Assembly (NCBI GenBank): GCA_947474275.1
Contig: CANJHY010000003.1
Coordinates: forward strand, 705 to 64,704
Length of the DNA stretch: 64,000 nt
Origin: Betaproteobacteria bacterium
Lineage (GTDB): Bacteria; Pseudomonadota; Gammaproteobacteria; Burkholderiales; SG8-41
Direction: 5' to 3'
The notes under the pieces are model-generated. The model saw only the letters and a program-made list of their open reading frames with translations. It had not been told where the DNA came from and made no database searches. Numbering within the stretch: position 1 is the stretch's first letter; each line of letters starts with the position of its first letter. Shown here one piece after another: positions 52,138-64,000 of this stretch. Both the position numbers and the translations under genes were made by a program.

Positions 52138-53136
52138 TTACTCGAAACGGATCTTCGCGGTCTGTATCACCTTGGCCCACAAAGAGCTCTCTTTTTTGAT
52201 ACGCGCTGCGAATTCGTCGGGCGTATTGGCGACCGGCTCGGCCCCGATGTCGAGCAGCTGCTTGCGCACTTCGGGCATGGCGACGACGCGCGCGATGTCG
52301 CGCTGGGTCCTGGTCACGACGTCAGGCGGCGTGCCGGCGGGTGCTACGAGTCCAAACCACACGTCGATATCGAAGCCGGCTACGCCGCCTTCGGCTATGG
52401 TGGGCACGTCGGGCAGCAGCGTTGAACGCTTTGCGGTGCTTACGCCGAGCGCGCGCAACTTGCCGGCTTTCACATAAGGCAGCGCTGCAGGCGTGTTGAA
52501 GAACAGCAGCGCGATCTGGCCGGCGATGAGGTCGGTCGCTGCCGGTGGCCCGCCTTTATACGGCACATGCACGATGTCTATGCCCGTCATCGACTTGAAG
52601 AGTTCCATCGCGAGATGCAGCGAGCCGCCGGCGCCCGACGAACCATAATTCACTTCGCCCGGCCGCGCCTTGCACAGTGCGATCAGCTCGCGCACGTTTT
52701 TCACCGGAAAAGCCGGGTTGGTGACGAGCAGTTGCGAAGTCGAGGCGACTATCGTAATCGGCGCGAATGCTTTGTCCGGATCGTACGGCAGGTTCTTGAA
52801 GAGACTGCGGTCTATCGTGAACGAGGTGTTCAGGGTGAAAAGCTGGGTATAGCCGTCGGGTGTCGCCGCAGCGCCGGCTTGGGTGCCGAGCCGGCCGCCG
52901 CCGCCCGCGCGGTTGTCGATGACGACTTGCTGGCCCCACACCTCGTACAGTCTCTGGCCGACGACGCGCCCGACGAGATCGATGCTGCCCGCTGCCGGAA
53001 ACGGTACGATCCATCTGACCGGGCGCGCAGGAAAGGCGCCCGTGCTGTCTGCAGCGTGCGCGGACGCTGCAAGGATGTTGCATGCGATAGAGAGCGCTGC
53101 GCCGACGCGACGCGACGTTAAGCAAAGTTTGTCCAA
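52138..53136 (-). CDS. Bug/TctC substrate-binding protein
   Basis: VPFPAAGSID, DNRAGGGG, PDGYT, HVPYKGG. Confidence 0.92.
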   Translation of the reverse strand: MDKLCLTSRRVGAALSIACNILAASAHAADSTGAFPARPVRWIVPFPAAGSIDLVGRVVGQRLYEVWGQQVVIDNRAGGGGRLGTQAGAAATPDGYTQLFTLNTSFTIDRSLFKNLPYDPDKAFAPITIVASTSQLLVTNPAFPVKNVRELIALCKARPGEVNYGSSGAGGSLHLAMELFKSMTGIDIVHVPYKGGPPAATDLIAGQIALLFFNTPAALPYVKAGKLRALGVSTAKRSTLLPDVPTIAEGGVAGFDIDVWFGLVAPAGTPPDVVTRTQRDIARVVAMPEVRKQLLDIGAEPVANTPDEFAARIKKESSLWAKVIQTAKIRFE

Positions 53137-53307
53137 CAGAAACTTCTCCTCGCGGGGCGCGATACCCCAATTTGAATAAATGCCGGGTGCTGAAAACCGC
53201 CACCCGCTGATACGTGGACGCTAGAATAACATCGCCGCCGCTTCGACGTACGTGGCCAGCCGGGCTGCGGTAGTATGGCGCGATGCCGAAATCCGCCAAC
53301 CGGTTCG

Positions 53308-54587
53308 ATGCATAAGCACTTGCGAGTTGCACTCGCCGGTTTTGCGCTGGTCGTTGCCGGCGCGACTTCTGCGCAGCAGCCGTTGTCCGCCGGTGTCGAA
53401 GCAACGGCGGCGGAGATCGTGGGCAATTTCAGGCGCATGATCGTGCTGCACGAAACGGCAGGGCGCGCGCGCGACCTCACGCAGGTCGGGCAGTACTCTT
53501 CTTTCGCAATCGTGAACTCACGGCGCAGCTGGTTGCCGACTTGCTCGTGCCGCCGCAGACGGACAGCGATCAGCGCATCGACGTGCTGCTCGATCTCATT
53601 GAAACGCGCAAAGACTGGCGCGACGTCGACAAGCTGGCGTTGCTCGGCGTGGTCAACGAAACCCGCGTGCGCCTGCCCGCCGCCTATCCGCTGGCCGCGC
53701 GGCTTAACAAGACCCGCGATGAGATCGTTGCCATCCGCGCCGGCTACAACAGCGAAATCACCGCGGCGTTTACCGATCGGCCGCTGGCCGCGCGCCGGCG
53801 CCCCGGTTGGGACGCTTATGTTGCTTTCCTGCACGAGGAATACCCGCTGGCGCGCGTGATGGAGGATTTGAAGGCGCAGCTCCCCGCGCCCGAACAGCGC
53901 GCAACACCCTCGCCCAAGGGCGCAGCGATCGCCGAGCATGCGCAGCGCGACGAATGGAACGACGGCGGCCTGCCGGCTAAAACCGTGCTGCTGACGTTCG
54001 ATGACGGGCCGCATCCGCGCTACACCGCGGAAATCCTGCGCATACTCGACTACTACAAGGTGAAGGCGATTTTCTTCCAGGTCGGCCAGAACCTCGGCAC
54101 CCTGCGCGACGGCCAGGCTGATTTCTCGCGCAACGCCAGCGTGGTTGAAGCGATACTGCGTGGCGGCCATGCCGTAGCGAATCATACCTATACGCATCCC
54201 TTTTTGCCCAAGCTCAGTGCCGCGCAGGTCGACGACGAAATCGAAACGACGCAGGCCCTGCTGCTTGCCGCAGTTCCCGGCAGCGGCCGCGCGTCGCTGT
54301 TCCGGCCGCCGTATGGCGTGCGCAACCCGCTGGTGCTTGCCGAGATTGCGGACCGCGGCCTGCGCTCGGTAATCTGGAACATCGATTCGCGCGACTGGGC
54401 GGATCCGATTCCGCAGTCGATCGCACAACGGGTGTTTGCCGAGGCCGAACGCGAGGGTCGCAGCATCATTCTCTTTCACGACATTCACGGACGGACCGTG
54501 CAGGCGCTGCCGCGCGTCATCGAAGGCCTGCTGAAGCGCAGGTTTCGGTTTGCGTATTGGGATGGCGGCGGACTGAAAACAGACTGA
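53308..54587 (+). pseudogene. Secreted polysaccharide deacetylase with a frameshift near 53496 (pseudogene or sequencing error)
   Basis: Signal-peptide frame ends ...VGQY; the -1 frame continues LFFRNRELTAQLVADLLVPP into the NodB domain (TFDDGP, HTYTH, RPPYG, DSRDW, LFHD). Confidence 0.75.
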
Positions 54588-55077: not shown

Positions 55078-55869
55078 TCAGGTCCCGGTAAATCTGGGCT
55101 CGCGGCGGTCGAATCCTGCCTTCACGCCTTCCTTGAAGTCGTTCGTTTCGCGCAGCATCTGCTGCTGGAAGGCCTCGCGCTCGGTCGCGGCCCGAAACGC
55201 GGGAATGAGATCGTTGTTCAGCGTTTCACGCGTCGCCTGGACTGCGAGCGGCCCCGATTGCGCAAGTTGCGCGGCCATCAACTGCGCGGTCTCGCGCACC
55301 TTGTCCTGTTCGACCAGGCGGTCCGCGAGCCCCATCGCGACCGCTTCGTCACCCGGCACGCGGCGCCCGGTCAGGAACAGCCATTTGGCCGTTTGGTGGC
55401 CGACTAGCCGCGGCAGTGTGACCGTCATCCCAAAACCGGGGTGATAGCCGAGGGCGGCGAAATTGGCGGCAAGCCTCGCTTCCTTGCACGTTACGCGGAA
55501 ATCGGCGACTAGCGCCAGTCCCAGGCCGGCGCCGATCGCGCTGCCGTGAACCGCTGCGACGATAGGCTTGCGCGTCTGCACCAGACGCTGTGCCTCATGG
55601 TAAAGATGCCGCGGCCGCGCGGTGGGTTTGCCCGCCGCTTCGTCTTCGATGCGTTTTTTCAGGTTCGCGCCGGCGCAGAAGTGCTTCCCGGCAGCCGCCA
55701 GCACGATGCTGCGACATTCGATGTCCTCGTCGAGAGCCTCCAGCACTGCGGCGAGGCTGGCGATCAGATCGACGTCCAGAAAGTTGTTGGGCGGTCTTTG
55801 CAGTTCGACCGTCGCAACGTGTCCGTTCATGCTGACGCCGATATCCGCATTGCTCAATGATTTTTCCAT
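55078..55869 (-). CDS. Enoyl-CoA hydratase/isomerase (crotonase) family protein
   Basis: FCAGANL, KPIVAAVHGSAIGAG, DFKEGV. Confidence 0.9.
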   Translation of the reverse strand: MEKSLSNADIGVSMNGHVATVELQRPPNNFLDVDLIASLAAVLEALDEDIECRSIVLAAAGKHFCAGANLKKRIEDEAAGKPTARPRHLYHEAQRLVQTRKPIVAAVHGSAIGAGLGLALVADFRVTCKEARLAANFAALGYHPGFGMTVTLPRLVGHQTAKWLFLTGRRVPGDEAVAMGLADRLVEQDKVRETAQLMAAQLAQSGPLAVQATRETLNNDLIPAFRAATEREAFQQQMLRETNDFKEGVKAGFDRREPRFTGT

Positions 55870-56297: not shown

Positions 56298-58412
56298 ATG
56301 AAGACCAGAAAGTTAAGTCCGGACTTTTTCCTGCCTCGATCAGTAGCGCTCGTTGGCGCGTCCGGTGAACCGGGAAAGGTAAATTCCCGGGCGCAGCAGC
56401 TATTACGCATACACGGTTTCACCGGCAAGGTATTTCCGATTAACCCGCGGTATAAAGATCTGTTCGGTTTGCCGGCTTATCCAACTTTGTTGGCCGTTCC
56501 CGAGAAAATAGACCACGCTTTGATAATGGTGCCCGCCGCTGCCGTGCACGAGGTGGTGCGTCAGTGTTGTGAACGCCAGGTTGCAGCAGCAACCATATTC
56601 AGCTCCGGTTTTGCAGAACTGGGCGAGGAAGGGGCGGAACTGCAGCGACAGATCGTGGCGACAGCCCGGGATGGGGGAGTAAGACTATTGGGGCCCAATT
56701 GTCTTGGCCTGGTAAATGTTCCCGGACACACAACCCTTTCCCTGAACGCTGTTCTTGAGCAAGAACAATTGCGCTCCGGTCCGCTCAGTGTAATTTCGCA
56801 GAGCGGCAGCATGCTAGGCGCCTTGATTTCACGGGCGCAGGCGCGTGGCCTCGGCTTCTCCAAGCTTGTATCCGTGGGAAACGAATGTGATATCGGTGTG
56901 GGGGAGATCGCAGAACTTCTGGCGGATGATGCAGATACCGGCGCAATACTGCTGTTTCTGGAGGCTTTCCGGGATTCCACCCGACTTGCTGTCGCGGCAC
57001 GTCGCGCGTTTAAAAAGGGTAAGCCGGTCATCGCATACAAACTCGGACGTTCGGAAATCGGGCGCCGGGTTGCGGTGTCGCATACCGGCGCCATTGCGGG
57101 AGCCGCTGAGGTTTCAGACGCTTTTTTTCAGGCGCACGGCATTATGCGTGTAGACACAATGGAGAGCCTCTTCGAATTACCGCAGTTGGTCATGGGACAT
57201 AAGCCACCGGCACACCGCAGAGTGGCCATTCTCACAGGATCGGGAGGACCTGCCGGGATGATTGCAGATCGCCTGGGTACGCTGGGCGTCGAAGTCGCGG
57301 GTCCCACGGAAGAAGTGATAAGAGATTTAAATGAAAAAGGCGTAAAGATCTCGGCGTCCCCCGTCACCGATATTCCTATGGGAAGAAATGATAGCTCATA
57401 CAACATGATACTGAGTGCGCTATTGTCTTCGGATCATTGTGATGCGGTGATCTCGGTGAGTGGTTCAAGCTCGCAGACGAACCCACAAAAGATTGTTGAT
57501 CGTGTGTTTGTGCCTGAACGAAGCAAGAAGCCTTTGGCCGTATTTCTGGCGCCACGCGCCGATGAAGCGCTCGCTTTGCTGGGAAAGCAGGGAATAGCCG
57601 GATTCCGAACGCCGGAAGCATGTGCAGATTCGATGCGTGCATATCTCAACTGGCGGAGCCCCCAGAGTAACGAATCTATCCGTGCTGGAGAACTGGCGGG
57701 GCCGAATGCTATGCTGGCAGCTACACAACGGGATTCCCTGAACGAATGTGAATCACTGGGTTTGTTTTCGTCGCTCGGCATTCCATCCACGCACTGCAGG
57801 GTTGTATCCGGGCCGGCTGAAGCGGTCGATTTCGCGGATCCTGTCGCGGTCAAGATATTGTCGCCTGACATTGTCCACAAGACCGAAGCAGGTATGGTCG
57901 CGCTTAATGTCGTGCCGGCTGATATCGCGTCGGTCGTTTCCACGATGTTGGGCGATGCCGCGAAGAAATTTCCAAAGGCCGGCATCGATGGAATTCTCGT
58001 GCAGCGCATGGAGAGCGGTCTCGCGGAAGTGATCGTTGGCTATCGCCGGGATCCCGAGGTCGGGCCGATCGTTCTCCTGGGACTGGGAGGCATTGCAGCG
58101 GAGGTTCATGCTAACCATAGCGTGCGCGTGGCGCCGGTCAGTCTGCGGACCGCGGAAACCATGGTCAGTGAAATACCGCAACTCAAGACGCTGGCGGGTT
58201 TTCGCAATTTGCCGAGAGGGGACTGCACTGCTCTTGCGCACGCGATTCGCGCAATGTCTCTGCTGGCGCTCGTTACGCCGCGCGTCGTGAGTGAAGCCGA
58301 GATAAACCCATTGATCGTAAAGCGCGACGGCGAAGGAGTGGTAGCAGTCGATGGCCTGGTCGTGCTGGAACCAAGTTCTTCTCCGCAGCAAGAAGCGGCA
58401 GGTGAGAATTAA
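56298..58412 (+). CDS. ADP-forming acyl-CoA synthetase (acetate--CoA ligase family, fused alpha/beta)
   Basis: PRSVALVGAS, GPNCLG, SQSG, SHTGA phospho-His, HKTEAG, EINPL. Confidence 0.93.
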   Translation: MKTRKLSPDFFLPRSVALVGASGEPGKVNSRAQQLLRIHGFTGKVFPINPRYKDLFGLPAYPTLLAVPEKIDHALIMVPAAAVHEVVRQCCERQVAAATIFSSGFAELGEEGAELQRQIVATARDGGVRLLGPNCLGLVNVPGHTTLSLNAVLEQEQLRSGPLSVISQSGSMLGALISRAQARGLGFSKLVSVGNECDIGVGEIAELLADDADTGAILLFLEAFRDSTRLAVAARRAFKKGKPVIAYKLGRSEIGRRVAVSHTGAIAGAAEVSDAFFQAHGIMRVDTMESLFELPQLVMGHKPPAHRRVAILTGSGGPAGMIADRLGTLGVEVAGPTEEVIRDLNEKGVKISASPVTDIPMGRNDSSYNMILSALLSSDHCDAVISVSGSSSQTNPQKIVDRVFVPERSKKPLAVFLAPRADEALALLGKQGIAGFRTPEACADSMRAYLNWRSPQSNESIRAGELAGPNAMLAATQRDSLNECESLGLFSSLGIPSTHCRVVSGPAEAVDFADPVAVKILSPDIVHKTEAGMVALNVVPADIASVVSTMLGDAAKKFPKAGIDGILVQRMESGLAEVIVGYRRDPEVGPIVLLGLGGIAAEVHANHSVRVAPVSLRTAETMVSEIPQLKTLAGFRNLPRGDCTALAHAIRAMSLLALVTPRVVSEAEINPLIVKRDGEGVVAVDGLVVLEPSSSPQQEAAGEN

Positions 58413-58458
58413 GCTGGATCAGACGTCGGATAAGTGTATGGAAGCCGGAGGAGAAGTA

Positions 58459-59427
58459 ATGAGTGTCAAACGCATTGCGCGTTGGTTTGTTACCGTGATC
58501 TGGTGCGCTTCGAGCTTGGCTGGCGCGCAGCCCTATCCAATCAAGCCTATTCGATTAATCGTACCGTGGCCGCCGGGAGGGACAACGGATGTGCTTGGCC
58601 GCATGGCCGCCGCAAGACTTACGGAAACGTGGGGCGTACAGGTTGTCGTGGACAATCGCGCGGGCGCGGGCGGTAATATCGGATTCGAAGGTTGCGCAAA
58701 ATCCCCCCCTGACGGCTACACGCTGTGCATTATGACGGTCGCCCAGACGATTTCGCCCAGCATTTACACCAAACTCGGTTTCGATCCCATCAAGGATTTC
58801 TCGCACGTCACTCTTATGGCTATCGTGCCAAGCCTGCTATTGGTGCATCCCTCTCTGCCGGTTAAGAATGTCAGGGAATTTACAGCACTTGCCAGGGCGA
58901 AACCCGGCGCTCTTAACTATGCCTCTACGGGCAACGGCACCAGCCCGCATATGATGATGGAAATGTTTAAGACGATGACAAACACCAACATCGTGCACAT
59001 CCCATATAAAGGTGTTTCATTGGCGATGATTGATCAGATTTCAGGTCTCGTGGAATCTTCGTTCGGCACCGCCATCGGTACGTTGCCTTTTGTAAGGCAG
59101 GGAAAGATCCGCGCGCTCGCGGTAACCACGCGTGACCGGTTTCCCCCGCTTCCCGAACTGCCGACAATGGTGGAGGCCGGCGTCAAGGGCTTTGAGGCAA
59201 GTTCATGGACGGGCATGTCGATGCCCGCGGGCACCCCGCGCGAAATGGTATTGAAGGCCAATGCAGAACTGGTCAGGATGCTGACGGCACCCGAGATGCG
59301 GGAAAAGCTGCTTGCGATGGGCGGCATTGCTGTCGGTGACTCTCCGGAAGAGTTCTCAGCGTTCGTTAAGCGCGATACCGGACAGTGGGGCAGAGTCGCC
59401 AGGGCCGCCAAAGTTCGCGTTAACTAG
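58459..59427 (+). CDS. Bug/TctC substrate-binding protein
   Basis: GGAGGAG RBS; VPWPPGGTTD, DNRAGAGG, PDGYTL, HIPYKG. Confidence 0.92.
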   Translation: MSVKRIARWFVTVIWCASSLAGAQPYPIKPIRLIVPWPPGGTTDVLGRMAAARLTETWGVQVVVDNRAGAGGNIGFEGCAKSPPDGYTLCIMTVAQTISPSIYTKLGFDPIKDFSHVTLMAIVPSLLLVHPSLPVKNVREFTALARAKPGALNYASTGNGTSPHMMMEMFKTMTNTNIVHIPYKGVSLAMIDQISGLVESSFGTAIGTLPFVRQGKIRALAVTTRDRFPPLPELPTMVEAGVKGFEASSWTGMSMPAGTPREMVLKANAELVRMLTAPEMREKLLAMGGIAVGDSPEEFSAFVKRDTGQWGRVARAAKVRVN

Positions 59428-59488
59428 CCTGGCACCGGATCTTTTACAGCAGTTTGCAAGGCATGTGCTTTCACTTATGGATTAAGCG

Positions 59489-60250
59489 ATGGAAAACGTA
59501 GTCTTGTACGAGGTCACGGGCAATATCGCGGTTATCACAATTAACCGCCCGGAACGGCACAACGCAATCAGCCTGGCCGTGCGCGAGCAGCTAAGAGAGG
59601 CCTTCATCCGGTTTGAGGCGGACGCCACGTTGCGGGTTGCAATATTGACAGGCAGTGGAGACAAGGCTTTTTGCGCCGGTATGGATCTGAAAGAAGCGGC
59701 CGAACTGAAACTCCAGAAAACTCCCCCACTGCCGGTCCTTGGTAACAACATCAAAGTTTCCAAGCCGGTAATTGCCGCGGTAAACGGTCATACCTACGCC
59801 GCCGGATGGTTACTCGCTCAAATGTGCGACCTGTGCATCGCGTCCGATAACGCGTTATTTGGCATTACCGAAGCCAAAGTCGGTCGCGGGTTTGCCTGGG
59901 CGGTCCCTTTGCTGGAAATGCTTCCGCAGCGAATCGTGGTCGAGCTGCTAATGACTGGCCGCGTAATAGATGCAAAGCGCGCTTGCGAAATCGGGTTCGT
60001 AAATTACGTTGTACCGGCGGCCGAATTGATGGACAAAGCCCTCGAACTGGCGAGGGAGATCGCCGCGAATGCGCCGCTGACGGTAATGGCAGTCAAAGAG
60101 TTAGTCCAAATTTCCCGGGAGATGGGCCAAAGCGCGGCGTTAAAGTATGCGCGCCAGATGTTCGATGAGAAAGTGTATTTGAGTGAAGATGCCATCGAGG
60201 GGCCGAAGGCGTTCAAGGAAAAGCGGCCGCCCGTATGGAAAGGCCGCTGA
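59489..60250 (+). CDS. Enoyl-CoA hydratase/isomerase family protein
   Basis: INRPERHNA, FCAGMDL, KPVIAAVNG, DAIEGPKAFKEKR. Confidence 0.92.
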   Translation: MENVVLYEVTGNIAVITINRPERHNAISLAVREQLREAFIRFEADATLRVAILTGSGDKAFCAGMDLKEAAELKLQKTPPLPVLGNNIKVSKPVIAAVNGHTYAAGWLLAQMCDLCIASDNALFGITEAKVGRGFAWAVPLLEMLPQRIVVELLMTGRVIDAKRACEIGFVNYVVPAAELMDKALELAREIAANAPLTVMAVKELVQISREMGQSAALKYARQMFDEKVYLSEDAIEGPKAFKEKRPPVWKGR

Positions 60251-60313
60251 TTGTGCTGTCGGTAAACTCGTATGCAGTTGGTTAGTGCAGGCAATGAAGA
60301 TGGAGTGCAGATC

Positions 60314-60856
60314 ATGATTGAAAAAAATGTGCGGTGGGTGACGCCTGAAGCTGCGTCTCCCCAGACAGTCAAAGCGCGGGAGTATCGGCGTCCGGACAAA
60401 ATTACTTTTCGTCTCGGCATTTTGGACAATGCAAAAAGCAATGCAGATCACTTATTGCGCATGGTATCCGAATCATTGCAAGCGACGATTCCTGTCGCCT
60501 CAGTTATTCGCCGGCGCAAGCCTGGCCCGGCCAGGCCGGCAGAAACTGCACTGCTGGATGAACTCATGAAGGAGGCTGATTTCGTTGTCAGTGCGATGGC
60601 TGATTGAGGGGCCTGCACGTCGTGGAGTGTCCACGACATGTCACAGCTTCGTCATAAAGGCGTCGCAGCAGCGGTCATTTGCTCGGAGCCTTTTGTCCGG
60701 CTGGCAAAAGCCCAGGCAGCTATTGCTGGCGTGCCTGATTTGCCTCTGATCGTGATCCCGCATCCGCTCGGAGGGGCGACGCAGGACGAAGTTAAGGCGC
60801 GTGCCGAGGTTGCAATGAGTCAGCTTATTATTCTGGTTCGGGAACTAACGCAATGA
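60314..60856 (+). CDS. UGSC-family selenoprotein (UGA at 60605-60607 read as Sec; U-G-A-C motif), 180 aa
   Basis: ORFs 60272-60607 and 60638-60856 share a frame; readthrough gives GILDNAKSNAD...SAMAD-U-GACTSWSVHD...IPHPLGG; SECIS-like hairpin follows; GGAG RBS before ATG 60314 (alternative start 60272). Confidence 0.85.
60615..60641 (+). promoter_or_regulatory. Putative bacterial SECIS element
   Basis: GTCGTGGA-gtg-TCCACGAC perfect 8-bp stem (60619-60637), extended by GCA/TGT; G-containing loop starts 19 nt after the UGA. Confidence 0.7.
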
Positions 60857-61968
60857 GAGACTCAGGGATCCCCGGCGGCCTCCAGGCATACACCGATGGG
60901 CCTGACGATATCGAGGAGGCCTACGAGTTTTGCGCCGTGCGCGGTTGGTGCGATGGGTTGCCGATTATTCCGCCCACACCTGAGCGTGTCGAACGCATGC
61001 TCATGTTTTGTGACAGGGAGCGCGACAAACCGGTAATAGCGATACCCCCGCGTTACGGCGACGCAACCCCGATACTACTGGCCGCCAATGCGGTAATGGC
61101 GGGTTGCAAGCCAGAGTATTTTCCGCTGGTCATTCTGGCTCTGGAAGCGATGGCGGAGCAGACCTTCAACCTTTACGGTATCCAGACAACGACGCATCCG
61201 TGCGCGCCGCTCATAATTGTGAACGGGCCGATAGCGCGCGAGCTGAAAATTAATTCAGGCCATGGCGCTTTCGGACCAGGCAACAGAAGTAACGCGAGCA
61301 TAGGGCGCGCAATTCGCTTTGCCCTGGTCAACATCGGCGGCGCAAATCCGGGAGCCGGTGACATGGACACCTATGGTTCGCCGGCAAAATATACTTATTG
61401 CATAGCGGAAAACGAACAACAAAGCCCGTGGCAACCATTGAGCCTCGATGAAGGACATACTCTCGAAGTCACTACGGTGACCGTGGTTGCTGCAGAATGT
61501 CCCCATAATGTGAACGATCACGAAAGCACAACTGCGGAGGGAGTACTGAAGACCATGGCCGGGACCGTCGCCACTACTGGTTGTAATAATGCCCATCATG
61601 CATCGCGTCCGGTCGTCGCGTTTTGCCCGGAGCATGCGGCGACCATAGCCGGGGGCGGCTATACAAAGGACGACGTCAAGGCCTATTTATACGAACATGC
61701 ACAAATACCCTTGTCGAAATTTTCCACGGAAAATGTCGAACGCCGCCTGCGCTTGAAGTTTCCCCTTCGTTACGCGAATGCACCGCTGGACGCCCTCGTC
61801 CCGATGGTGCAACGTCCGGAGGACTATATCGTTATCGTTGTGGGCGGCGCCGGAAAGCATTCGGCATATATACCTACTTTCGGTTCCACCCGCCCGGTAA
61901 CGCGTGCGCTTCGTCACGCAGATGGGCATTTGGTGCGGTCGATACAAGAGCTGCGAAACGCCCGTTAG
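60853..61968 (+). CDS. Conserved uncharacterised partner of UGSC-family proteins
   Basis: ATGA overlap with the selenoprotein; GWCDGLPIIPPTPERV, NAVMAGC, TTHP, NASIGRA, HNVNDH, PEHA, GGAGKHS. Confidence 0.85.
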   Translation: MRDSGIPGGLQAYTDGPDDIEEAYEFCAVRGWCDGLPIIPPTPERVERMLMFCDRERDKPVIAIPPRYGDATPILLAANAVMAGCKPEYFPLVILALEAMAEQTFNLYGIQTTTHPCAPLIIVNGPIARELKINSGHGAFGPGNRSNASIGRAIRFALVNIGGANPGAGDMDTYGSPAKYTYCIAENEQQSPWQPLSLDEGHTLEVTTVTVVAAECPHNVNDHESTTAEGVLKTMAGTVATTGCNNAHHASRPVVAFCPEHAATIAGGGYTKDDVKAYLYEHAQIPLSKFSTENVERRLRLKFPLRYANAPLDALVPMVQRPEDYIVIVVGGAGKHSAYIPTFGSTRPVTRALRHADGHLVRSIQELRNAR

Positions 61969-62163
61969 TTGCCGGGAGTCAATCAAGTTTCACAATAGGT
62001 GTAAGCTAAAGTCCGGGAAGTCCAGTTGATCCAGGATGCAAAAGTCAGATCAACAATAAAGGTTGACGCTGATGGACTTGCAACTCGATATACACGCGGG
62101 CGGCACGCGCATCGCGGTATTTTTCCGCGCTACGCTCAAGGTTTAAACGCACACCCATCGCAT

Positions 62164-64000
62164 ATGGCCAAACTTATCCCCCAATCCGCGGCGCCTTCAG
62201 AGGTTGAATCTGATTTTGTCGTTGCGCGCGACGTCATGGTCGCCATGCGCGACGGCGTCAGGCTCGCCACCGACGTTTACCGCCCCGCGAGCAAAGGTAT
62301 GGCGGCCGCCGGCAAATTTCCGGTCATCCTCGAGCGCACGCCGTACGGCAAGGCGCAGGTCTCGCGCTCCGAGATCGACGTCGGTATGACGGTCTCGCGT
62401 CCGCGTCCGGAAGTCGCCGCATGGTTCGTGCGCCAGGGTTACGTCGTCGTCTACCAGGATTGCCGCGGCCGCTATGCGTCCGAAGGCGAGTTCGTCAAAT
62501 ATCTGAGCGATGGCGAGGACGGCTTCGACACCATGGCGTGGCTGATGGCGCAGCCATGGTGCAACGGTAAAGTCGCGACCATGGGGCTTTCATACGCGGC
62601 GCATACGCAAGGTTCGCTCGCCTGCCTGAACCCGCCGGGGTTGGCCGCGATGGTGATCGATTCGGGAGCGTTTTCCAACGCTTACCTGTCCGGCATACGC
62701 AGCGGCGGCGCGTTTGAAATGAAACAGGTGACGTGGGCATTCAACCAGGCGAAGGAAAGTCCCCTCGCCAAAGCCGACCCCGCGGTGCGCGCGGCCCTCG
62801 AAGCGGAAAATCTCATCGAGTGGTTCAAGGTCATGCCGTGGAAGCCCGGCCATTCGCCGGTGCGCTGGGTGCCGGAGTACGAGGATTACCTGTTCGAGCA
62901 GTGGACGCACGGCGCGTTCGACGGCTACTGGAAGCAGCTCGGCATTTATGCCGAAGGCTTTTACAAAAAATTCGCCGACGTGCCGCAGATTCACATGTCG
63001 AGCTGGTACGACGCCTATATACGCACCGCGACGGACAATTACGTTGCGCTCAAAAAACTTAAGCGCGGCCCCGTGCGCCTCATCATGGGGCCATGGACGC
63101 ACGGCGATCGCGCCAAGACTTTTTCGGGCGACGTCGATTTCGGCGCGGCGGCGACCATAGACAACAATCTCGCGCAGCACTGGCGCGAATTCCGCCTGCG
63201 CTGGTTCGATCACTGGGTCAGGGGTGTTGCCAACGGCGTGGACAAGGAACCCGCGGTGCGGCTGTTCCTGATGGGCGGCGGTTCCGGCCGCAGCAATGTC
63301 GACGGGCGGCTCGATCACGGCGGGCGCTGGATTGCCGGCGACGACTGGCCGCTGCCGCAGACGAAATACACCAATTACTATCTGCACGCGGACGGGCAAT
63401 TGACGCCGGCCAAGCCGGCAACGAACGCCGCGCCGCTGGCTTACGATTACGATCCCGCAAACCCGGTGCCGACGATGGGCGGACCGCTGACTTCGGGCGC
63501 GCCGGTGTTCGTCGGCGGGGCGTTCAACCAGCGCGAAGATGCGCGCTTTTTCGGCGTGCGCCATCCGGGTCTGCCGCTTGCCGCGCGCCATGACGTGCTG
63601 GTGTTCGAGACTGCGCCGCTCGCGGAAGACGTCGCAGTGATCGGCCCTATCGTCGTGCATCTGCACATCGCTTCGAATTGCATCGATACCGATTTCACCG
63701 CCAAATTGATCGACGTGCATCCACCGAACGTGGATTACCCGCGCGGCTTCGCGATGAACCTGTGCGACGGCATTCTGCGCTGCCGTTACCGGGCCTCATG
63801 GGAAAAGCCGACGTTGATGAAGCCGGGCAAGACGTACGAAATCACCATAGAGCCGTTTGCGACCTGCAACCTCTTCAAGGCCGGGCACCGCATCCGGCTC
63901 GATATTTCGTCCTCCAACTTTCCGCGCTACGACGTCAATTCGAACACCGGCGAACCCGAAGGCCGCGCGCAGACCAGGCGCGTTGCGACCAACACAGTGT
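62164..64000 (+). CDS. CocE/NonD family hydrolase (partial, runs off window end)
   Basis: ATG 62164; MRDGVRLATDVYRP, RTPYGK, QDCRGRYASEG, GLSY nucleophile, GPWTH, SSSNFPR; absent from the ORF track because no stop lies in the window. Confidence 0.92.
   Translation, partial: MAKLIPQSAAPSEVESDFVVARDVMVAMRDGVRLATDVYRPASKGMAAAGKFPVILERTPYGKAQVSRSEIDVGMTVSRPRPEVAAWFVRQGYVVVYQDCRGRYASEGEFVKYLSDGEDGFDTMAWLMAQPWCNGKVATMGLSYAAHTQGSLACLNPPGLAAMVIDSGAFSNAYLSGIRSGGAFEMKQVTWAFNQAKESPLAKADPAVRAALEAENLIEWFKVMPWKPGHSPVRWVPEYEDYLFEQWTHGAFDGYWKQLGIYAEGFYKKFADVPQIHMSSWYDAYIRTATDNYVALKKLKRGPVRLIMGPWTHGDRAKTFSGDVDFGAAATIDNNLAQHWREFRLRWFDHWVRGVANGVDKEPAVRLFLMGGGSGRSNVDGRLDHGGRWIAGDDWPLPQTKYTNYYLHADGQLTPAKPATNAAPLAYDYDPANPVPTMGGPLTSGAPVFVGGAFNQREDARFFGVRHPGLPLAARHDVLVFETAPLAEDVAVIGPIVVHLHIASNCIDTDFTAKLIDVHPPNVDYPRGFAMNLCDGILRCRYRASWEKPTLMKPGKTYEITIEPFATCNLFKAGHRIRLDISSSNFPRYDVNSNTGEPEGRAQTRRVATNTV

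Follow-up and report, generated by a model that had tools for sequence, protein, structure and literature searches.

Glycine reductase and D-proline reductase each contain a selenium-bearing subunit (GrdB and PrdB, respectively), whose chemistry depends on selenocysteine (Sec) and which works together with a second protein. A different selenoprotein family, named after its U-G-S-C motif, has been in print since 2007-2008: a 'UGSC-containing protein' with function unknown was described by Zhang and Gladyshev (PMC1976440), and UGSC proteins ranked among the most abundant selenoproteins of the Global Ocean Sampling data set, with 255 Sec forms versus 21 Cys forms and a higher frequency in non-marine samples (PMC2398784). 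The same 2008 paper called a thioredoxin-like fold 'likely' and reported the fusion 'UGSC/Unknown_1', and a 2026 review places UGSC (NF041046) among the prokaryotic selenoproteins with largely uncharacterized functions (PMC13188914). Here we describe a UGSC locus at positions 60314-60856 of a stretch of 64,000 nucleotides (hereafter the window) from contig CANJHY010000003.1 of the Betaproteobacteria bacterium assembly GCA_947474275.1, a metagenome bin of 215 contigs and 4.36 Mb that is 94% complete and 5.3% contaminated. The locus is very probably a single gene for a UGSC-family selenoprotein of 180 residues, in which an in-frame TGA is read as Sec. Its features and those of its surroundings are collected in Table 1.

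The open reading frame (ORF) 60272-60607, which ends with ...VVSAMAD, stays open in the same frame past the TGA at 60605-60607 until a second TGA at 60854-60856. The codons that follow the first TGA are GGG GCC TGC ACG TCG TGG AGT GTC CAC GAC ATG, and ORF 60638-60856 represents the tail of this frame, so that readthrough gives the peptide D-U-G-A-C-T-S-W-S-V-H-D, preceded by an alanine (A-D-U-G-A-C). The original prediction, made from the sequence of the window, had proposed that an in-frame TGA joins two predicted ORFs, and this TGA is indeed the sole stop between them. Counted from the ATG at 60314, the protein comprises 180 residues with Sec98, as had been proposed, and with Cys101; this ATG is favoured over the start at 60272, because a GGAG is located 8 nucleotides upstream of it and because the first methionine of the orthologs aligns there. 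The minus-strand ORFs across 60314-60856 are unsupported and are taken as chance.

The readthrough protein matched the UGSC_fam model NF041046 with 141.2 bits (cut-off 125), covering positions 4-143 of the model's 147 and spanning the TGA (residues 47-186 when numbered from the 60272 start), and the model PF24696 with 155 bits (cut-off 25), covering positions 3-167 of the model's 172, again across the TGA. PF24696 was also matched by all eight paralogs tested. The proposed family identity is thereby borne out, as is the expectation of an unbroken alignment across the UGA. In a 20-sequence alignment (A1), no sequence departs from Gly99 or Cys101, and the Sec column is nearly invariant. The motif of this protein (U98-G-A-C101) has alanine in place of serine; the UGAC variant to which the original prediction drew attention is thus present, but the same exchange recurs in 3 of the 11 orthologs and is nothing special to this gene. 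Database proteins correspond to split pieces of the gene, with P0002 and its relatives ending ...SAMAD and P0005 beginning MSQLRHKG, and the locus shows how ORF callers split selenoprotein genes in two. The description of the selenoprotein as 'hidden' holds to that extent; since the family is known, the gene is hidden from naive ORF calling only. Because it matches NF041046 and PF24696, and because the family is already in print, the gene is an ordinary new member of a described and modelled selenoprotein family.

The genome encodes all four components of the Sec machinery that the prediction presupposed (selA, selB, selC and selD). Contig C169 carries together selA (596.4 bits), selB (429.5 bits) and the tRNA-Sec (76.1 bits; gathering score 47), while selD (426.4 bits) is located on contig C9 (C9:37329-38255). 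All four matches are above their model cut-offs, selA and selB are readable without internal stops, and the contigs concerned have a G+C content of 59-63%, compared with 61% for the genome. One in-frame TGA lies inside each of the UGSC_fam matches of the genome (10/10), every time in a U-G-x-C motif. TGA also occupies the Sec column in 150/150 of the matches listed from 60 relatives (which have 508 further matches beyond these) and in 11/11 orthologous loci covering it, all from named public bins, and seven fused homologs have Cys at this column (C-G-S/N-C). Contigs of three independent DNA studies of lake metagenomes cover positions 60605-60607 with no letter other than TGA; one contig record among these (X11 record 1) reaches from 60200 to 60641 and differs at one position only, outside the TGA. 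The TGC or TGT that would have turned the codon into Cys is therefore absent from these independent contigs, and the TGA is intact. An RNA run yielded contigs that were 90-99% alike and reached a portion of the gene only, and is no evidence that the gene is expressed.

Among relatives, selA was found in 30 of the 36 same-family genomes sampled, and likewise in the two UGSC-bearing genomes from other families. These 36 include one unpublished genome (G034), which enters no other claim and without which the counts are UGSC 35/35, selA 29/35 and PF07355 26/35. Decoding of UGA codon 98 as Sec by the SelA/SelB/SelD/tRNA-Sec system of the organism is thus strongly supported by comparison of sequences. 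Two points weigh on the other side, namely that selA was not found in 6/36 same-family genomes (all of them bins, three rated 92-100% complete), and that the assignment of Sec98 is derived from sequence and not from protein-level detection of selenium.

Two further observations concern the machinery itself. The selD gene (C9:37329-38255) has one in-frame TGA, because of which its product is probably a Sec-containing selenophosphate synthetase. The tRNA-Sec model gave two equal-scoring matches (C201:7457-7547 and C169:2996-3086), whose flanks are 94-97% identical over approximately 240 nucleotides, and which stem either from a second gene copy or from a second strain within the bin; the match on C201 is located approximately 1.3 kb from a fused gene of UGSC and its partner (see below).

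A hairpin that resembles a selenocysteine insertion sequence (SECIS) is located 9-35 nucleotides 3' of the UGA, and consists of the pairs 60616/60640 and 60617/60639, one mismatch, eight core pairs and a three-base loop. In an alignment (A3) of 34 in-frame sequences, composed of the window, seven paralogs and 26 relatives or orthologs, 80.6% of the cells are paired, a share that falls to 20.3-41.5% if the partners are shifted by 1-3 columns. The covariation score of 0.273 compares with 0.105 +/- 0.016 for shuffled alignments and was reached by none of the 500 shuffles. Pair 21/27 is C-G in 19 sequences, G-C in 15 and unpaired in none, and two further pairs display double changes from G-C to A-U at synonymous third positions. 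At the same place, the four most divergent paralogs have different hairpins. Position and G-containing loop fit the bacterial SECIS model of bSECISearch, and the conserved hairpin is likely a SECIS element that recruits SelB. Several results argue against this assignment: the single-sequence fold of the 61 nucleotides past the UGA is not significant (z -1.49, 16 of the 200 shuffles being equally stable), Rfam held no fitting family for 60400-60900 (the sole row being Twister-sister with E 4.2), and the pairing counts are inflated because one of the aligned sequences had supplied the structure under test and because the hairpin overlaps the coding sequence of a conserved peptide.

The 37-nucleotide segment that comprises the UGA and most of the hairpin (60602-60638) stood out in the lake metagenome contigs, where its summed depth was 113-832, versus 5-8 in the flanks. 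This is 15 to 140 times the depth of the flanks, and many contigs with unlike flanks break off there. The pattern fits a short repeat that breaks assemblies, shared by many paralogs.

The UGSC protein is paired or fused obligately, at the level of this genome, with one partner family, represented in the window by the gene immediately downstream. A member of this family adjoins (six cases) or is fused to (four cases) all ten UGSC copies of the genome. Among the adjacent pairs, the partner lies downstream of three UGSC copies and upstream of three (in one case as two in tandem), and the four fused copies each form one reading frame of 564-620 residues. The ATGA overlap between UGSC and partner gene was present in 12 of 13 related loci. 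By tblastn, 13 copies of the partner family were found in the genome, and the two copies that have no UGSC neighbour reach a contig end on the side where a UGSC gene could lie.

The partner family is very large: of 8000 candidates that were scored, 6686 matched at E<=0.001, and at 50% identity the family comprises 5302 representatives. The partner has no Pfam or NCBIfam match, and the few listed homologs that bear a name are all called 'hypothetical protein'. Of the best 150 representatives, 77 are shorter than 400 residues, 48 have 400-499 residues and 25 have 500 or more. All five tested homologs of 416-452 residues start with the part of UGSC that follows the Sec and are therefore fusions cut at the TGA, and the two tested members of 560 residues are full fusions of UGSC and partner. 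One homolog, P0151 (695 residues), joins a partner domain (residues 19-353) to a C-terminal pyridine-nucleotide-disulphide oxidoreductase domain (Pyr_redox_2, 6.1e-41), a fusion that hints at the electron source. Eleven partner paralogs share the invariant residues W32, D34, L36, P37, T42, A77, G84, P87, P91, G125, P126, G151, R152, N160, E186, W193, G201 and G331. The two best-conserved cysteines, Cys85 and Cys183, were considered as universal catalytic thiols of the partner, a role that is weakened by their conservation in 10 and 6 of the 11 paralogs, respectively; this counts against the two-part enzyme proposed below.

Structures were predicted with AlphaFold2 for both proteins. The UGSC model, based on the 20-sequence alignment, has a mean predicted local distance difference test score (pLDDT) of 89.3 and a predicted template modelling score (pTM) of 0.83, the first 30 residues being less confident. 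It describes a five-stranded, parallel, alternating beta/alpha domain of the order b-a-b-a-b-a-b-a-b-a. In this model, Sec98 is located between the third strand (90-94) and the N-terminus of the third helix (100-114), and Sec98 and Cys101 lie at the edge of the sheet, beside other residues conserved in the family (N39, K69, D89 and D108). The closest structures by Foldseek and VIA-align were flavodoxin-like, CheY-like and B12-binding domains, with template modelling (TM) scores of 0.43-0.52 and, in VIA-align, Z up to 12.3 and 523 chains at Z>=8; as judged from the model, such matches reflect a common generic fold and give no pointer to function. The partner model (63 sequences) reached a pLDDT of 94.9 and a pTM of 0.93. 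Foldseek gave no match for it at E<=0.001, the best being class I fumarate hydratase with a TM score of 0.24, and the best VIA-align result among 48,161 chains had Z 5.3 over 75 residues, longer alignments with Fe-S hydro-lyases remaining at Z 3.3-3.9. When solved structures were searched by sequence, UGSC had no match and the partner only one row, attributable to chance. The modelled partner has no clear solved relative; its structural matches are too weak for a fold to be named, which does not prove a new fold.

Three other explanations of the locus were weighed. The first accepts the selenoprotein and, following the published proposal, takes UGSC as a free-standing thioredoxin-like oxidoreductase with many clients, of which the neighbouring gene product would be one, or to which it would be unrelated. 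The placement of the U-x-x-C motif at the N-terminus of a helix, as in thioredoxin-fold proteins, speaks for it. The fold predicted by the model is nevertheless flavodoxin-like and not thioredoxin-like, with five parallel strands alternating with helices and with best matches among flavodoxin-like, CheY-like and B12-binding domains. No thioredoxin-fold chain was among the structural matches listed for UGSC, an absence from the listing that does not exclude such a match. One partner family is adjacent or fused in 10/10 copies of this genome, and the fact that each paralog has a partner copy of its own is better explained by dedicated pairs than by a general carrier; we therefore consider the free-standing oxidoreductase improbable. 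The second explanation holds that the TGA is a true stop, and that the locus encodes two small proteins (97-111 and 72 residues) or a dead nonsense allele. Gene callers yield exactly these pieces (P0002 and P0005), and the second piece could start at the ATG at 60638. Against this, both family models align unbroken across the TGA, the Cys forms are single proteins, and a nonsense mutation would not persist at one column throughout the ten, 150 listed and 11 homologs counted above; the domain predicted by the model moreover needs both halves, with strands 1-3 before the Sec site and strands 4-5 after it. A true stop is accordingly very unlikely. Equally remote is the third explanation, that near-cognate suppression or an altered code lets the UGA specify one of the standard amino acids (Trp, Cys or Gly), which draws on homolog P0003, recorded with W at the Sec column (probably the code choice of the gene caller), and is opposed by the full Sec machinery with a covarying hairpin right after the UGA, by selA and selB genes without internal stops, by a selD gene that itself has one in-frame TGA, and by TGA ending ordinary genes here, as in the UGSC gene itself and in the enoyl-coenzyme A (CoA) hydratase gene, where the Pfam match is complete at the gene's end.

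With the locus read as a selenoprotein gene, its relation to GrdB and PrdB was examined. The only other NCBIfam match of UGSC was TIGR01917 (glycine reductase selenoprotein B), with E 0.0068 in the Sec region, and one fused paralog matched the glycine reductase component B family marginally (E 0.017). The genome also encodes a GrdB/PrdB-like selenoprotein of approximately 409 residues with a U-P-N-C motif (C191:5679-6962 on the minus strand, locus L062), in which the PF07355 match stops just before the Sec. Aligned by hhalign with ten GrdB/PrdB-like Sec segments (alignment A4), the UGSC alignment gave a probability of 82% and E 1.1e-5 over 78 columns, in a register that matches the two Sec columns and the two Cys columns with each other and aligns the G-[VI]-P-T strand and the P-x-G loop. 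Distant homology of UGSC to GrdB/PrdB, confined to the Sec-bearing segment, is on these alignments probable but unproven, and UGSC itself falls outside the GrdB/PrdB family. Arguing against the relationship, the TIGR01917 match has 15.4 bits versus a cut-off of 602.2 and covers only model positions 330-403, PF07355 did not match UGSC at E up to 1, hhalign against a single GrdB/PrdB-like sequence gave a probability of only 18.7%, and the shared U-x-x-C-T motif may drive the similarity. Nor did the partner match PF09338, the model of the pyruvoyl proproteins GrdE/PrdA, at E up to 10. Elsewhere in the family, PF07355 matches were present in 27 of the 36 genomes, the U-P-x-C form was found in 18 fetched loci of relatives, and a GrdB-like gene with U-G-T-C occurs in a genome of the same genus (G005).

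We infer a redox role for the UGSC protein, as the original prediction did. By analogy with the Sec subunits of glycine and D-proline reductase, UGSC would be the selenium-bearing subunit of a two-part reductase, whose other part would be the product of the translationally coupled gene 60853-61968. Sec98 would attack or reduce a substrate held by the partner and would then form a selenenylsulfide with Cys101, which a thioredoxin-reductase-type flavoprotein system would reduce again. The full chain, from the two-part reductase through regeneration, is possible on this analogy, though on balance improbable. A wider proposal, which we offer tentatively and regard as doubtful, is that UGSC and its partner form a modular selenium-dependent reductase with a GrdB/PrdB-related Sec module, fed by thioredoxin-reductase-type flavoproteins, which diversified within a family of uncultured freshwater Burkholderiales into dozens of paralog pairs, each specific for its own substrate. 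The neighbourhoods of the paralogs differ and indicate no single pathway, a point against the inferred two-part enzyme. Two other paralog loci hold MmgE/PrpD, family III CoA-transferase, enoyl-CoA hydratase or acyl-CoA synthetase genes and others do not, and neighbours of other paralogs include amidase, GST, ketopantoate-reductase-like, MmgE/PrpD, family III CoA-transferase, RecN, NAD kinase, a GGDEF-EAL protein and Tex.

The lineage in question is one of uncultured freshwater Burkholderiales: related public loci are titled as bins of uncultured Betaproteobacteria or Burkholderiales, and the stretch is present in lake or freshwater metagenomes of at least six studies. UGSC matches occur in 36/36 sampled genomes of the same family (7 to 52 each), versus 2/24 genomes of other families of the order. 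Within the same genus, G005 (98% complete, 2% contaminated) has 56 UGSC_fam matches and G002 has 22, an in-frame TGA being present in 54 and 21 of these, respectively, so that the overall range in the lineage is 7-56 copies per genome. The largest bacterial selenoproteomes given in the 2026 review comprise 57 and 63 genes, and the richest groups are mostly anaerobic (PMC13188914). By the counts in G005 and G002, UGSC alone comes close to such numbers; if the proposed radiation into paralog pairs is real, one protein family would rival these largest printed selenoproteomes outside the mostly anaerobic groups, and the copy numbers bear on the possible size and whereabouts of large bacterial selenoproteomes. 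No publication on an expansion of UGSC in this lineage was found in a search that did not extend to a groundwater metagenome-assembled genome study cited by the review. The points added here to the published account of the family are the partner family, the prediction of a flavodoxin-like fold, the profile similarity to GrdB/PrdB and the copy numbers in the lineage. The partner, whose very large family carries no name and whose confident model resembles no solved structure clearly, opens the way to concrete experiments together with the plausible relation to the Sec segment of GrdB/PrdB.

The genes around the pair in the window (Table 1) encode a CoA ligase, enoyl-CoA hydratases, a TctC receptor and a hydrolase, and hint at catabolism of carboxylic acids or CoA esters. 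Two enoyl-CoA hydratase genes flank the acyl-CoA synthetase and TctC genes, and the genes upstream of UGSC (56298-60250) are candidates, by position only, for the same functional unit as the UGSC pair. A comparable set, made up of acyl-CoA synthetase, MmgE/PrpD and TctC genes, lies ahead of the pair on contig C112. The TctC (Bug-family) receptors have undergone a very large expansion in this genome, with 464 tblastn matches on 150 contigs of the 4.36-Mb genome, or approximately one per 9.4 kb. A specific link between UGSC pairs and TctC genes was considered and rejected, 15 TctC genes being located near partner genes versus 9.7 expected (P 0.066), and TctC neighbours are uninformative because such genes are everywhere in the genome. 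Several ORFs of 364-456 residues near UGSC-partner loci have no Pfam match (E<=1e-5), and some of them may be spurious overlapping frames.

Table 1. Features of the UGSC locus and its surroundings (positions in the window unless another locus is named)
Feature	Position	Strand	Details
UGSC-family selenoprotein gene (very probable)	60314-60856	+	180 codons plus terminal TGA stop; Sec98 assigned to in-frame TGA
GGAG, likely ribosome-binding site (inferred)	60302-60305	+	8 nucleotides 5' of ATG 60314
TGA, codon of predicted Sec98	60605-60607	+	homolog conservation and independent contigs
TGC, codon of Cys101	60614-60616	+	second residue of U-x-x-C motif; invariant in 20-sequence alignment A1
SECIS-like hairpin	60616-60640	+	core stem 60619-60626 with 60630-60637; loop 60627-60629
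Partner gene	60853-61968	+	371 residues, large unnamed family; ATG overlaps UGSC stop (ATGA)
Second enoyl-CoA hydratase	55078-55869	-	Pfam
NDP-forming acyl-CoA synthetase	56298-58412	+	Pfam/NCBIfam
TctC-family solute receptor	58351-59427	+	Pfam/NCBIfam
Enoyl-CoA hydratase	59489-60250	+	Pfam/NCBIfam
S15/CocE-NonD-type hydrolase	62026-63999	+	PF02129 2.7e-56, PF08530 1.6e-46; runs off the window; context only
ORF without Pfam match	53118-54488	-	
ORF without Pfam match	L063:5650-6816		
ORF without Pfam match	L066:3371-4465		
ORF without Pfam match	L066:4233-5444		
ORF without Pfam match	L068:1470-2810		

When compared with known systems, the UGSC protein resembles the thioredoxin-fold UxxC/CxxC oxidoreductases in its Sec/Cys pair with two-residue spacing at the N-terminus of a helix, and differs from them in its predicted flavodoxin-like domain of five parallel strands. 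With GrdB and PrdB it shares a Sec in a U-x-x-C-T motif right after a beta strand, beyond which come a helix, then a G-[VI]-P-T strand and then a P-x-G loop; unlike these proteins, it does not have the region of approximately 345 residues before the Sec that is covered by PF07355. The closest correspondence is with the published UGSC family. Pairing or fusion with an unknown domain is common to both, the partner described here being a candidate for the published 'Unknown_1', and both have a length of approximately 180 residues, a Sec followed by G-x-C-T and a SECIS-like hairpin in the coding region; the protein of the window departs from the published motif in its third residue, which is Ala and not Ser (U-G-A-C).

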